A model generated the notes under the pieces. It ran no database searches. It was not told the origin of the DNA and saw only the letters and a program-made list of their open reading frames with translations. Below are positions 3,027 to 7,784 of a DNA stretch of 64,000 nt, in pieces. Position 1 is the stretch's first letter; each line of letters starts with the position of its first letter. The DNA is from a bacterium (GTDB lineage: Bacteria > UBA8248 > JACPRG01 > G963555815). The position numbers were made by a program, and so were the translations under genes. The stretch covers positions 608,001-672,000 of the forward strand of contig OZ244653.1 in NCBI GenBank assembly GCA_965218795.1, read 5' to 3'.

Positions 3027-3324
3027 GAATACCGAGACAGCCGAAAATCATGATTCAGCGGGTATGAATGCCTCGCTGGTTGATATTCGGCTTGAGTTCA
3101 GGTTATGTATCGAATATCTGGCCTCTTTGCTTCGCTCACCATCCTGGGAGAGATCTTGTTGGGGAAGGCAGAGGAATTCCGACTGCCCCCAGGATGTCGA
3201 TCAAGATGGGTGCATTGACTCCCGTGCGGTTTGAATGCGCGGGTGGATTTCCCATGATGAACACATATCGAGAGGTTGGTTGATACGGCCGGCCGCTACG
3301 CTGGAAGACAAGGAGGTCGCCGCA

Positions 3325-4626
3325 ATGGCCACGGAAGTCACCATGCCCAAATTGGGCCTTACGATGGAGCAGGGCACGGTTCTCACCTGGAAGAAGAAGG
3401 CTGGGGATCTCGTCGGGGAAGGAGAGGTCCTCCTCGTGATCCAGACGGACAAGGTGGAGTTCGACGTTGAGTCTCCGGCTGCCGGTACTCTCCTGAGGCT
3501 CCTGGCGAACGAAGGCGATGTGGTGCCGACGGGCGATGTGATCGCGTACGTCGGGGAGGCGGATGAGAAGCTGGAAAATGCGCCTGCGCCGAGAGTGGGA
3601 GCTGCCGCTGCCGGCCGTGTTGCGGCATCGCCGGTCGCGCGGAATCTGGCGACAGAGTTGGGTGTCGACCTCTCGGCGGTCAAAGGGAGCGGGCCGGGGG
3701 GGCGAATCGTCAAGGAGGACGTACTGAAAGCCGCCGAGGCTCCGTCCGCCGCGCCCGTATCCGCCGACGGTCGGGTCTTCATCTCCCCGCTGGCCAAGCG
3801 GCTCGCCCGCGAGCGAGGAATCGACTACTCGCGAATCAGGGGAAGCGGGCCGAACGGCCGGATCATCAAGAACGATATCCTGCAAGCTGAACAGAAACCG
3901 GAAGCCGCGCCCACGATTGCCACATCACCGGGCGGGATATTGGAGAGCATCCCGGTCCGGGGGATGCGTCAGGTCATTGCCCAGAGAATGGTGCAGAGTT
4001 GGACGTCCATTCCGCATGTCACCGAAGTCATTGACGTGGATGCCACGAAAATCGTGGAGATGCGGGAGGCCCATCAATCCGTTTGGGAAGAGCATTATGG
4101 CGTCAAGATTTCTTACAACGATATTTTTGTGCACCAGATTGCGCGCGCCATCCGTAGATTCCCCAGGGTCAATTCCCGGTTAAACGGCAATGTCATCGAG
4201 ATCCTCGAAGAAGTCAATATCGGTGTTGCGGTTGAAGTGGATGAGGGGCTGATGGTTCCTGTGATCCGGAACGCCGACCGGAAAAACGTGGGACAGATCG
4301 CGGGTGAAATCCGGGATCTCGCCGAAAGGGCGCGGGAGGGACGGATCAATCCCGACGAACTCGCCGGCGGCACGTTTACCATCTCAAATCTCGGAGCGTA
4401 CGGAATTCAGACCTTTACGCCCATCATTGACCTTCCGAACAGTTGCATTCTGGGAATCGGAAAGATTACGAAGACCCCTGTCGTCGTCGATAACGTGGTT
4501 GCGATTCGGGATGTCGTTTATTTGAGCCTGTCCTTCGATCATCGAATTGTTGACGGCGCGCCCGCCGCGCAGTTCCTGGCGTTATTGAAAGAGACGTTGG
4601 AAGATCCGGTTGTCGTACCGTTGTAG
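3325..4626 (+). CDS. Dihydrolipoamide acyltransferase (E2 of a 2-oxoacid/acetoin dehydrogenase complex)
   Basis: AGGAGG RBS; lipoyl domain QTDKV; two subunit-binding repeats (ASPVAR..GSGPGGRI, ISPLAK..GSGPNGRI); catalytic DHRIVDG. Confidence 0.93.
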   Translation: MATEVTMPKLGLTMEQGTVLTWKKKAGDLVGEGEVLLVIQTDKVEFDVESPAAGTLLRLLANEGDVVPTGDVIAYVGEADEKLENAPAPRVGAAAAGRVAASPVARNLATELGVDLSAVKGSGPGGRIVKEDVLKAAEAPSAAPVSADGRVFISPLAKRLARERGIDYSRIRGSGPNGRIIKNDILQAEQKPEAAPTIATSPGGILESIPVRGMRQVIAQRMVQSWTSIPHVTEVIDVDATKIVEMREAHQSVWEEHYGVKISYNDIFVHQIARAIRRFPRVNSRLNGNVIEILEEVNIGVAVEVDEGLMVPVIRNADRKNVGQIAGEIRDLAERAREGRINPDELAGGTFTISNLGAYGIQTFTPIIDLPNSCILGIGKITKTPVVVDNVVAIRDVVYLSLSFDHRIVDGAPAAQFLALLKETLEDPVVVPL

Positions 4627-4852: not shown

Positions 4853-5887
4853 ATGCTCGGGGTGGTCAAGACGACGAGGGGGGAGGGAAACGTTGAAGTG
4901 CGGGAAGTCCCGGAGCCCTCACCCGGTACCGGAGAGGTCAAGATAGCGGTTCGTAACGCGGGCATCTGCGGGACGGATCTCCATATCTACCATGATCATT
5001 TCATGTCGAATCCCCCTGTGGTCATGGGACACGAATTCTGCGGCGAAATTGTTGATGTCGGGCAGGGAGTGACGGGATACGGGCCGGGAGACCGGGTCAC
5101 CTGTGAGACGGCAGCGAGAACCTGTGGGACCTGCCGGTATTGCCGCCGCGGGGATTACAATCTTTGCGACGAGCGATTGGGATTCGGGTACGGCGTGAAC
5201 GGGGCTTTCACGAGCTTTGTCATCGCCCGGCAGCAGCTCCTTCACCGTCTGCCGGATAACGTGGATTTTTTGGCGGGCGCGCTCACCGAACCGCTGGCGT
5301 GCGCCGTCCACGGGGTGATCCACATGACGGGCGTCCAGGCCGGCGATGTGGTGGTGGTGACCGGACCCGGCCCCATCGGGTTGATGGTGGCTCAGGTGGC
5401 CCGCGCGGAAGGGGGCCACGTCGTGATGCTTGGAACGGGGCGTGACCAGGCGCGGCTGAAGATAGCGGAAGGGCTGGGATTCGCGCGTGTCATGAATATC
5501 GATGAGGAGGATGCTGGAGAGTACATCAAGGAATTGACGGACGGCTTTGGAGCGGACGTGGTTTTCGAAGGCGCGGGCGCTCCGGTCGCGGCCAGGCTCC
5601 TTCTTGAGATGGTTCGCAAATCGGGGAAATTCACACAAGTCGGTTTAATGGGGAAGCCCTTCGAGATTGATTGGGAGCGGATAGCTTACAAGGAACTCAA
5701 GGTCACCGGGATGTTCTCCCAAAACTGGCGGGATTGGGAGCGGGCGCTGGCGCTTATCAGCCAGGGGAAAGTGGATGTGGCGGCTCTTGTCTCCAGTCGG
5801 GTTCCCATCACCGAGTGGGAAGCCTCCTTTCAAAAGCTCGAGGCCGCCGAGGAGGTCAAGGTTCTCATGAAACCGGTGGAGGACTGA
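4853..5887 (+). CDS. Zinc-dependent alcohol/polyol dehydrogenase (MDR family)
   Basis: GICGTDLH, GHEFCG, structural Zn motif CxxCxxC..C, GPGPIG; GGAGG RBS. Confidence 0.93.
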   Translation: MLGVVKTTRGEGNVEVREVPEPSPGTGEVKIAVRNAGICGTDLHIYHDHFMSNPPVVMGHEFCGEIVDVGQGVTGYGPGDRVTCETAARTCGTCRYCRRGDYNLCDERLGFGYGVNGAFTSFVIARQQLLHRLPDNVDFLAGALTEPLACAVHGVIHMTGVQAGDVVVVTGPGPIGLMVAQVARAEGGHVVMLGTGRDQARLKIAEGLGFARVMNIDEEDAGEYIKELTDGFGADVVFEGAGAPVAARLLLEMVRKSGKFTQVGLMGKPFEIDWERIAYKELKVTGMFSQNWRDWERALALISQGKVDVAALVSSRVPITEWEASFQKLEAAEEVKVLMKPVED

Positions 5888-6005
5888 CTTTCAGACGCTG
5901 TTCAATTCACGCCCGGATTCCGCCCTGCCTTCGATACACGAATCCATCCAGAGCCCAATGACGATGGGGCTCCGGCCATTCATCGGTTAAGGCCGAGATA
6001 CCCGC

Positions 6006-6503
6006 TCACTCATATCGGGGCATGGGTTGCTCCGGCGGGACCACGTGAATCTGCTCGATCAGTTCGGGCGGATGAACGATCGTGTTGTGCAGCGGGCAGT
6101 GGGCCAAGTCCTCGAGAAGTGTCTTTTTCTGGTCTTCGGTCAAATCCCCTTTGATGTAAACGTCAGACACAATCTTGGCGATCATGTTTTTACGGCGTTC
6201 GGGATCCCCATGGTAGTCCTTGTGAAACTTGGGGGTGAGACTCCGCTTGAAGCTCAGGTGAATTTCCACATCATCAATCTGGATCCCTTTGGCCTTCGCT
6301 ACTCCCAGCAGCGTGAGGAGGCTTCACCCGCCGTAGCCGGCCGCAAAAAACTCGAACGGGGTAGCCCCGAGATCATCCCCGCCGCGGACCTCCGGTTCGT
6401 CCAGTACGTAGGAATGTTTCCCGGTGGTCGTGAACATTTGCATCTGCATGCCCCTGCCCGTCGTTCGGACAACGACTTGAGGCTGGCCTCGTTTTTCAGG
6501 CAT
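6006..6503 (-). CDS. OsmC-family selenoprotein (Sec at codon 60)
   Basis: ATG at 6503 with AAAGG RBS; DEPEVRGGDDLGATPFEFFAAGYGG-[TGA 6326-6324]-SLLTL continues in frame into the track ORF 6006..6269, which has the resolving CPLHNT. Confidence 0.85.
6292..6322 (-). promoter_or_regulatory. Bacterial SECIS-like hairpin
   Basis: After the UGA: lower stem GCCU/AGGC, upper stem CGCUGCU-GGG-AGUAGCG starting 11 nt downstream, G in the apical loop. Confidence 0.75.
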
Positions 6504-6667
6504 GTGAGTGACCTTTCTCTCGTTTGGGTTGTCCGGATAGAAGAAAAAGGAAATCGATGCTCATCGGGAGTTGGCCGCCATGCGGAGGCCGTTCAGTCGA
6601 TACGGAGCGGGAGTCAGCAAGTCCTTCGGAGCCGACCGGTAAGCCTCCGAGGCCTCCTTGTTTTTCC

Positions 6668-7784
6668 CTAACGCTGAAAGCGCTTCTCCCCATAGAATTG
6701 AGAGATTTTTCTCCATTTTCCGCTTGGAAATTCGGCGTCCAGTGGGTCAAGGATTTTCAAAGCCGACTTTGGGTTGCGGGCCTGAAGGAGTGCCGTGCCG
6801 TAGAAGAAGAGGGTGTCCTCCCGGACCGTTCCGGTCGCCTCGGACAGGAGCTCTTGGTACAAGGGTAACGCCTTGTGCCAGCGCGCGTGGAGCGTGTAGT
6901 GCCGGGCGCGGGTCAGTTTCCCGCCTGCGGCCTGATCAACTTTGAACCAAAGCCGGCTCCGGAGAAAATAGATGTCCTGGACAAAGGCGGAAAATGCCTT
7001 TCCGAACATTCGGTGATACAAGCCTGTTGTCTTGATGATGCGCCGATGCTTTGGTCGCTGGCCTTCGATAAAGCTGAGTCCGGGACGGCTGGGTCCGATC
7101 GGGCTGATGACGAACGAGCGATACCAATCCAAAAATTGAGCCTGACGGCTTCCGTTGCTGGCTATGCCCGCCAGCTCGAATCCGGCGCGGAAAATGGGAA
7201 GATTGTCGATATGGGAAAAATCCCTTTTGAGTTCGTCACGCGTCAAGCGTCACGCCTCCGCGCTCGGCCCCGGGAAGAATTCCATTAAGCGGATCGACGA
7301 TTATCCAGCGGCCGTTCAGATTCACTTCCGCGATGGTGTGTGGAGAGTTTCCGGTTTTGTCCCGCATCATCGCTATTCGCGCGGACAGCCCCCTCTTTGC
7401 AACCAACTGAATGTGCACGACGGCTATCTGGTTGCAGTAAGCCCTGCCTTCGGCTGCCACGTCCAGTGGGGGGCGGTCGCGCCCGGGGGTATCCGACGGG
7501 ACGTTGAGGCGCCAGTGGAGATAGGTCATCACGCCCGAAACTGTCTGGAGCGGGCCCTTTCCGACAGGGGAAGCCCGATGGGCCATGACCTCATAGGTGA
7601 CATGTGCGTATGCCCGTCTCAGGGTTCCGCCCCCGGTAATGGTCAAATAGAGGGGGAAGGAGAGGATGAGGACAACAAGGAGCACCGGCACCGCGATGAG
7701 GATCCGCCGCCTCCCGCTCCGGCGGGTTTTGACACCGCCTTGCCGGTCAATCCATGAGGTGCTGAGAAGGTTGAAAGCGCTCAA
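6668..7784 (-). pseudogene. Transglutaminase-like membrane protein with C-terminal TPR, split by an apparent single-base frameshift near 7245
   Basis: Upstream ORF has a TM helix and the Cys-His-Asp triad (AYCNQ, PHTIAEV, WIIVDP); downstream ORF overlaps it by 11 nt and is TPR-like; removing one T gives VTLTRDELK. Confidence 0.6.

Follow-up and report, generated by a model that had tools for sequence, protein, structure and literature searches.

Ohr and OsmC proteins are dimeric thiol peroxidases, whose peroxidatic cysteine, once oxidised to the sulfenic acid, is captured in a disulfide by a resolving cysteine, with catalytic help from an arginine and a glutamate; the two redox cysteines are conserved and lie about 60 residues apart, and in the OsmC subfamily the catalytic arginine is carried by the loop that joins strand 3 to helix 1 (PMC5384416). 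Forms with selenocysteine (Sec, U) have also been described: an 'OsmC-like protein' selenoprotein family, assigned to COG1765 and bearing the motif UxxT, was reported from the Sargasso Sea survey of 2005, together with the description of the bacterial selenocysteine insertion sequence (SECIS) as a stem-loop that closely follows the UGA and bears a G in its small apical loop (PMC1088965). Reviews of 2022 and 2026 list a single OsmC-like form (PMC9312934, PMC13188914). The subject of the present analysis is a gene on the minus strand (6503-6006) of a 64,000-nt stretch of bacterial DNA (contig OZ244653.1, positions 608,001 to 672,000 of the forward strand; hereafter the window, whose positions are used unless a contig is named). 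This is very probably one intact OsmC-fold selenoprotein gene, with Sec inserted at UGA codon 60 via a downstream hairpin, and with a product that is most likely an OsmC-type hydroperoxide reductase.

The protein shares with the curated family NF041052, 'OsmC-related (seleno)protein', the common OsmC fold (PF02566), a UGA at the position of the first redox cysteine and a small hairpin with a G in its loop, but reaches only 53.6 bits against that model, for a cut-off of 95 (44.4 bits in a six-frame search). The motif of the window's clade is U-[SG]-L-[LY]-T, i.e., UxxxT (USLLT or UGLYT), and not the published UxxT; its second cysteine stands in CP[LI]HNT, in contrast to GC[FY]AENM in NF041052, and an invariant OsmC-type arginine and a His-rich loop are further differences. 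The original prediction, made from the letters of the window, had placed the gene in a known class of OsmC-like selenoproteins; the class is indeed known, although the protein falls outside NF041052. The gene is thus of a known kind, useful rather than surprising to a specialist, as OsmC-like proteins with Sec were already described in 2005. It represents a lineage-restricted subfamily that curated models miss, and of which only Sec forms were found.

Gene structure

The minus-strand interval 6503-6006 is one frame of 165 sense codons with Sec at codon 60, and its only internal stop is a TGA (6326-6324, codon 60) in the context GATPFEFFAAGYGG*SLLTL, where the asterisk marks the TGA. The frame from the ATG at 6503, the TGA, the CPLHNT motif and the hairpin had all been predicted, and every coordinate and context proved exact. 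The features referred to below, all on the minus strand, are the following.

6006..6503, minus strand: predicted complete selenoprotein gene (frame; Pfam OsmC; orthologues with the same start and one TGA)
6501..6503, minus strand: ATG start codon (a homologous Met opens all 26/26 extracted orthologues)
6384..6386, minus strand: CGC, Arg40, candidate OsmC-type catalytic arginine (invariant in alignment A1; E. coli OsmC spacing)
6351..6353, minus strand: GAG, Glu51, candidate catalytic glutamate (invariant in alignment A1; aligns with E50 of E. coli OsmC)
6324..6326, minus strand: UGA codon 60, predicted to be read as selenocysteine, at the peroxidatic position (orthologue conservation; Cys in homologues)
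6297..6313, minus strand: putative SECIS upper hairpin, CGCUGCU-GGG-AGUAGCG, 7-bp stem and GGG loop (covariation; frozen four-fold sites)
6291..6323, minus strand: possible extended SECIS, with a lower helix pairing 6319-6323 with 6291-6295 (weak support)
6183..6242, minus strand: clade-specific His-rich loop, residues 88-107 (...PKFHKDYHGDPERRK...; alignment A1)
6096..6098, minus strand: TGC, Cys136 in CP[LI]HNT, presumed resolving cysteine (invariant in alignment A1; aligns with CPVHKT of 9wo1)
6008-6006, minus strand: terminal TGA (sequence)

The N-termini of the orthologues begin with MPE[KR], MSEK or MSRK, and a purine-rich AAAGG (6516-6512), located 8 nt 5' of the ATG, looks Shine-Dalgarno-like, as judged from sequence alone. 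In a plain list of open reading frames (ORFs), the gene appears as two pieces, one of 59 aa (6324-6503) and one of 87 aa (6006-6269, from a GTG start). The truncation by gene callers that had been anticipated is precisely what public databases show, as they hold the gene as 59-aa and 87-aa fragments, under source names such as 'OsmC family protein', 'uncharacterized OsmC-like protein' and 'hypothetical protein'; every protein match above 48% identity is a fragment lying on one side of the TGA.

Conservation of the TGA

A six-frame search of 41 related genomes gave 22 matches of 59-99% identity (the window's own counted), each with exactly one internal TGA, and a profile run against all 51 genomes of the phylum gave 27 orthologues (E <= 7.6e-88), 27/27 of which carry exactly one TGA, in the same column, so that close homologues do keep the TGA, as had been proposed. 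The orthologues with the TGA cover two families of the phylum. Twenty-six genes were extracted, from 25 of these 27 genomes and from one genome of another phylum; at 59-81% identity, the TGA occupies the same aligned codon in 26/26. A metagenome scan added three loci, 3/3 with the TGA at this column, one of its two search patterns having Cys at the Sec column and being therefore unable to match a TGA, and a scan of genome collections returned close relatives only.

The proportions of nonsynonymous (pN) and synonymous (pS) differences, obtained by Nei-Gojobori counts for ten orthologue pairs, amount to a pN of 0.05-0.20 upstream of the TGA and 0.11-0.33 downstream, for a pS of 0.35-0.92 that is often saturated. 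Purifying selection thus operates on both sides of the TGA, from which it follows that the two halves are translated in this one frame. Nor is the TGA an assembly error, since contigs of three sequencing runs from three studies span 5800-6800 and are identical at 6324-6326; the window may, however, itself derive from one of these runs. In two metagenome runs, additional short contigs of other organisms match only 6281-6341, the surroundings of the Sec codon and SECIS (4-5 differences), which fits a view of this stretch as the part of the gene with the strongest nucleotide conservation.

The orthologue of the other phylum (L048/L105, on G051:C28) is 67% identical, carries the TGA and lies in a 1.9-Mb genome bin. 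No orthologue was found in 150 other genomes sampled from that phylum, and this isolated copy could be the result of a horizontal transfer or of a mis-binned contig.

The downstream hairpin

The hairpin starts 10 nt after the UGA and, with its 7-bp stem and GGG loop, agrees with the published description of a bacterial SECIS. The comparison covered the 60 nt from the TGA onward in 26 sequences, of which 25 are distinct. The stem is paired in 175/175 cells, with an invariant GGG loop; pair 18:26 is G-C in 18 sequences, A-U in 5 and G-U in 2, and pair 19:25 is C-G in 24 and U-A in 1. The covariation score was matched by 0/500 shuffles, and sliding the partner columns reduces pairing from 92% to 22-52%. 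The four-fold degenerate sites provide the strongest evidence: third positions of codons 64, 66, 67 and 69 are invariant in 26/26, codon 65 varies only between G and A, with the pair preserved, and outside codons 61-72 none of the 45 four-fold sites is invariant. Mean entropy at such sites is 0.14 bits in the hairpin and 1.08 bits elsewhere, and Gly67 is fixed as GGA while GGC dominates at the other Gly sites of the gene. The hairpin is under selection at the RNA level.

The lower helix of the possible extended SECIS is paired in 81.6% of cells, with changes on both sides in 1/5 pairs, and the window's own sequence forms 4/5 of its pairs. The upper hairpin alone folds with -7.6 kcal/mol. Considered in isolation it is only moderately unusual, as a comparable structure (8-14 nt after the TGA, a stem of at least 7 bp with at most one G-U, and a loop of 3-6 nt with G in its first two positions) follows 917 of the 156,876 TGA trinucleotides of the genome (0.58%), and the case therefore rests on the comparison with relatives.

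Selenocysteine machinery of the genome

The genome, a single contig of 5.17 Mb, encodes the set of factors whose presence had been suggested as a check: selA (565.8 bits) adjoins selB (386.7 bits), neither with an in-frame TGA; selD (319.1 bits; G000:C1:5147448-5148413, minus strand) has an in-frame TGA of its own, in AGG-U-GSKLG, and is itself a selenoprotein gene; and there is one tRNA-Sec (72.1 bits, anticodon TCA), the other sub-threshold matches to RF01852 that were checked being tRNA-Ser and tRNA-Leu. A second selD-like gene without TGA lies near selD (5145405-5146154), at 106 bits, below the cut-off. Co-occurrence of the gene with the Sec machinery was considered as a test and discarded, since such a test cannot discriminate when selA is found in 49/51 phylum genomes, the remaining two being 67% and 79% complete.

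Fold and candidate catalytic residues

Alignment to the Pfam family OsmC (PF02566), another check that had been proposed, extends over residues 42-147, across the TGA, with 52.6 bits for a gathering threshold of 27.5 (E 6.4e-14). An AlphaFold2 model of the protein has a predicted local distance difference test score (pLDDT) of 75.8 and a predicted template modelling score of 0.74, the loop 88-107 being poorly predicted (pLDDT about 55-64). A Foldseek search with this model gave 53 PDB matches at E <= 0.001, and every match listed is an OsmC or Ohr protein, with a probability of 1.00 and template modelling scores of 0.43-0.64. In HMMER alignments, the Sec column corresponds to the first conserved redox cysteine of five structures (9wo1, 1vla, 2opl, 3cje and 6mjn). 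Cys-type homologues were represented by 63 proteins, namely three from related genomes and the best 60 of the 141 representatives whose alignment covers 100 residues or more; Cys is found at the Sec column in 63/63 and at the Cys136 column in 63/63. The TGA therefore lies where the original prediction had placed it, at the catalytic cysteine, with Cys136 as the second one. The two residues are 76 apart, a wider spacing than the usual one of about 60, because the loop between them is longer.

Relative to E. coli OsmC (b1482), both proteins have two redox residues, an arginine 20 positions before the first of them (R39/C59 and R40/U60), an acidic residue at -9 and a proline after the resolving cysteine, and the folds match (1nye, 1qwi). 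They differ by Sec in place of Cys, by the redox spacing (76 versus 66) and by the residue at -10 (Phe versus Glu), and sequence similarity is very low, with an hhalign probability of 0.3%. Arg40 is invariant in alignment A1 and lies between a predicted strand (31-33) and a predicted helix (49-72), 20 residues before U60, its equivalence being judged by position and not by superposition. Arginine occurs at this column in only 1/63 Cys-type homologues and in 0/13 rows of other Sec clades, which calls for caution in reading the protein as a peroxidase.

The best match among solved structures is to the fusions of OsmC with an alpha/beta-hydrolase or esterase domain (PDB 9wo1; PMC5113044), with E from 7e-16 to 3e-17. 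Such fusions, of about 400 aa, are also the commonest full-length Cys homologues, with 30-40% identity to the window's protein. Their C-x-x-x-T and CPVH motifs are matched by it, but they have Cys and not Sec, lack Arg40 in 17/17 cases, and contain a loop that is 6 residues shorter, with a CxxC motif, already noted for these fusions (PMC5113044), where the window's protein has HxxxH. Ohr proteins match in fold (top Foldseek structures 6mjn, 1n2f and 1zb9), and their FAAGY-x-x-C aligns with FAAGYGGU; the Ohr-type arginine, borne by the loop joining strands 1 and 2, is in contrast not conserved, its column showing R, K, E, Q or a gap.

Residues F93, H94, H98, D100, P101, R103, R104 and K105 of the loop are invariant in alignment A1, and H98 aligns with the first Cys of the CxxC loop in 30/62 Cys-type homologues. 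The loop had been read from the window as an apparent insertion. This holds for its His-rich composition, which is specific to the clade, and much less for its length, as the nearest Cys homologues, including 9wo1, have a loop only 6 residues shorter, often with CxxC. The invariant H82, H94, H98 and D100 align with the H...CxxC loop of many Cys-type relatives, and these four residues may constitute a metal site or a second redox site.

Alternative readings of the TGA and of the function

Several observations weigh against an intact selenoprotein gene with peroxidase activity, and are considered here along with the explanations that they would favour. Could the TGA be a true stop, which would leave a pseudogene, or two short genes of 59 and 87 aa? 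Gene callers output exactly these fragments, and the hairpin is thermodynamically unexceptional, since the 61-nt region has a minimum free energy of -14.5 kcal/mol (z = +0.76) and 152/200 shuffles fold at least as well. In a permissive Rfam scan of 6150-6450, no SECIS family was recovered, only matches at chance level (E of at least 0.15). One relative, in a genome of a large genus, carries a decayed copy (G026; L076, G026:C10:1514109-1517342) with its halves in different frames, the TGA lost and Arg in the Sec column; as selA is kept there, at least this one lineage can do without the gene. The sole contig from an RNA library (metatranscriptome) covers 5906-6168, short of the TGA, and, being possibly DNA carry-over, was not used as evidence. 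A true stop is nevertheless extremely unlikely: the TGA is kept in 27/27 orthologues despite saturation at synonymous sites, and purifying selection acts on its two flanks; codons 61-78, from the TGA to the first downstream start, are conserved in their amino acids and vary synonymously outside the hairpin; neither the Pfam domain nor the fold is complete with one half alone; and the truly decayed copy of G026 looks different, frameshifted and devoid of the TGA. It is also highly improbable that the UGA is read without selenium as a standard residue (Trp, Cys or Gly), through code reassignment or near-cognate read-through. Public databases contain one full-length gene call (P0002), which does translate an orthologue with W here, but it reads the terminal TGA as W as well and runs past it, so that this W is an artefact of a TGA=W translation. 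TGA is a normal stop in the genome, given that selA and selB have no in-frame TGA and that the gene itself ends in TGA; moreover, the Sec machinery is complete, and a SelB-binding element would be expected to constrain synonymous sites in just the way observed in the downstream hairpin. The in-frame TGA almost certainly encodes selenocysteine.

What the selenoprotein does is a separate matter. A doubtful but serious alternative is that of an OsmC-fold redox or metal-handling protein of the 'Ohr-like' third group, a real selenoprotein but no peroxidase, acting in thiol-disulfide or persulfide exchange or binding a metal with its loop (H82, H94, H98, D100). The position presumed canonical for the glutamate, 10 residues before the catalytic residue, is occupied by Phe50 (it is E49 in E. 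coli OsmC, where either E49 or E50 may be the catalytic one), and neither subfamily model is reached: TIGR03562 (OsmC) is absent from the four NCBIfam families listed at E <= 0.1, and TIGR03561 (Ohr) scores 21.6 bits for a cut-off of 88.85. In ferrous oxidation-xylenol orange (FOX) assays with H2O2 or cumene hydroperoxide and dithiothreitol, no peroxidase activity was seen for the OsmC domain of a related esterase fusion (PMC5113044), another Ohr-like protein is described as lacking thiol peroxidase activity (PMC4069020), and the invariant His and Asp residues of the clade align, as mentioned above, with the H...CxxC loop of Cys relatives. On the other side, Arg40 is invariant at the OsmC spacing and rare elsewhere, an invariant acidic residue (Glu51) stands one position after the canonical glutamate, both redox positions are invariant, and it is typically at catalytic redox nucleophiles that Sec takes the place of Cys, as the redox motifs of Table 3 in PMC1088965 show. 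This invariant arginine at the spacing of E. coli OsmC makes a Sec-dependent hydroperoxide reductase of the OsmC type the most likely identity of the product, whose activity we infer from its residues.

For such a hydroperoxide reductase, the following sequence of events is the most likely. As the comparative evidence shows, the hairpin 6313-6297 recruits SelB with its Sec-tRNA(Sec) once the ribosome has arrived at UGA-60, and codon 60 is very probably decoded as selenocysteine instead of causing termination. The U60 selenolate, activated by Arg40 and perhaps by Glu51, would then attack the hydroperoxide and be converted to a selenenic acid, which Cys136 would resolve into an intramolecular selenenylsulfide. 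A thiol donor would finally reduce the selenenylsulfide, lipoyl proteins or thioredoxin being the precedents for Ohr/OsmC.

Relationship to other OsmC proteins

No Cys-form orthologue was found in the protein collections searched, where none of 1.84 billion representative proteins reaches E <= 1e-30. In a quick maximum-likelihood tree, the window's clade is supported at 100% by the Shimodaira-Hasegawa-like approximate likelihood-ratio test and joins three Cys proteins and a second Sec clade (92%), the members of NF041052 standing apart on a long branch. By an approximately unbiased (AU) test, however, one clade uniting every Sec form is not rejected (p-AU 0.64), and the tree constrained in this way is 12.4 log-likelihood units better than the free quick tree; no claim is therefore made for an independent origin of Sec in the window's clade. 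A full-text literature search found no paper describing this subfamily, which supplementary tables might nevertheless list.

Genomic neighbourhood

Synteny of the gene with its neighbours (a Zn-dependent alcohol dehydrogenase and genes for a tetratricopeptide repeat protein, a transglutaminase-like protein and a class IV aminotransferase) is observed only within the window's own family, and the neighbours in the other family are a diadenylate cyclase and a deaminase. The gene stands alone, without a conserved partner across families, and consequently no partner can be deduced. A gene for a lipoyl-bearing E2 protein (3235-4626) was considered as evidence for a lipoyl reductant, and rejected as it is convergent, two genes away, and found only in L027/L046 (one same-genus record). 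The antisense ORF 6027-6671 (plus strand) has no Pfam hit and was treated as spurious. A scan of 5700-6900 revealed no promoter-like or terminator-like site on the minus strand.

Other OsmC-domain genes and dependence on selenium

The most interesting aspect of this gene is its genome context, as five of the six OsmC-domain genes of the genome carry an in-frame TGA. In the four others of these five, the TGA is at the equivalent position and is followed by a small G-loop hairpin. Three are NF041052 paralogues, above the cut-off of that model with 143.5, 135.5 and 120.9 bits, each with the TGA in GIG-x-U-LLT and its own hairpin; the fourth is a further hidden gene.

G000:C1:1380473-1380892, plus strand: NF041052 paralogue
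G000:C1:3682860-3683228, plus strand: NF041052 paralogue
G000:C1:3048035-3048394, minus strand: NF041052 paralogue
G000:C1:1453461-1453922 (L103:462-923), plus strand: putative hidden OsmC-domain selenoprotein gene, 154 codons, TGA in TAVAS-U-MTGN, hairpin GCGCGC-UGGAG-GCGCGC 19 nt downstream

The hidden gene at 1453461-1453922 has orthologues in 37/41 related genomes, 38/38 matches with exactly one TGA, and no NCBIfam model comes near its cut-off for it, the best being TIGR03562 with 24.2 bits for 85.8. The five Sec genes of the genome represent at least three subfamilies (four across the class), and the Sec subfamilies that fall below every curated model number two in the genome and three across the class.

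Five of six OsmC-domain genes with Sec suggest an unusual reliance on selenium for peroxide defence and, if this reliance is true, the supply of selenium would be linked to the fitness of these bacteria. Because the gene is stored as fragments and the curated model falls short, proteomics and metabolic reconstructions of the phylum miss a probable antioxidant enzyme. A bolder view can be formulated, in which the window's gene belongs to an obligately Sec-dependent, lineage-restricted subfamily, combining the OsmC-type arginine with a metal or substrate site in the His/Asp loop, and forms one arm of a selenium-based battery, so that the hydroperoxide defence of the phylum would be largely selenium-dependent; in this complete form it is speculative, and we regard it as improbable.

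A second unrecognised Sec subfamily was encountered in related genomes, with one copy in each of five (L098 in G006, L099 in G004, L100 in G003, L074 in G014 and L075 in G038). It is characterized by the motif AGLGL-U-T[VI][VT]TL ... CP[VI][HS]N[TA]L, is 33-40% identical to the window's protein, and also lies below the NF041052 cut-off, with about 52-56 bits in 4/5 copies.

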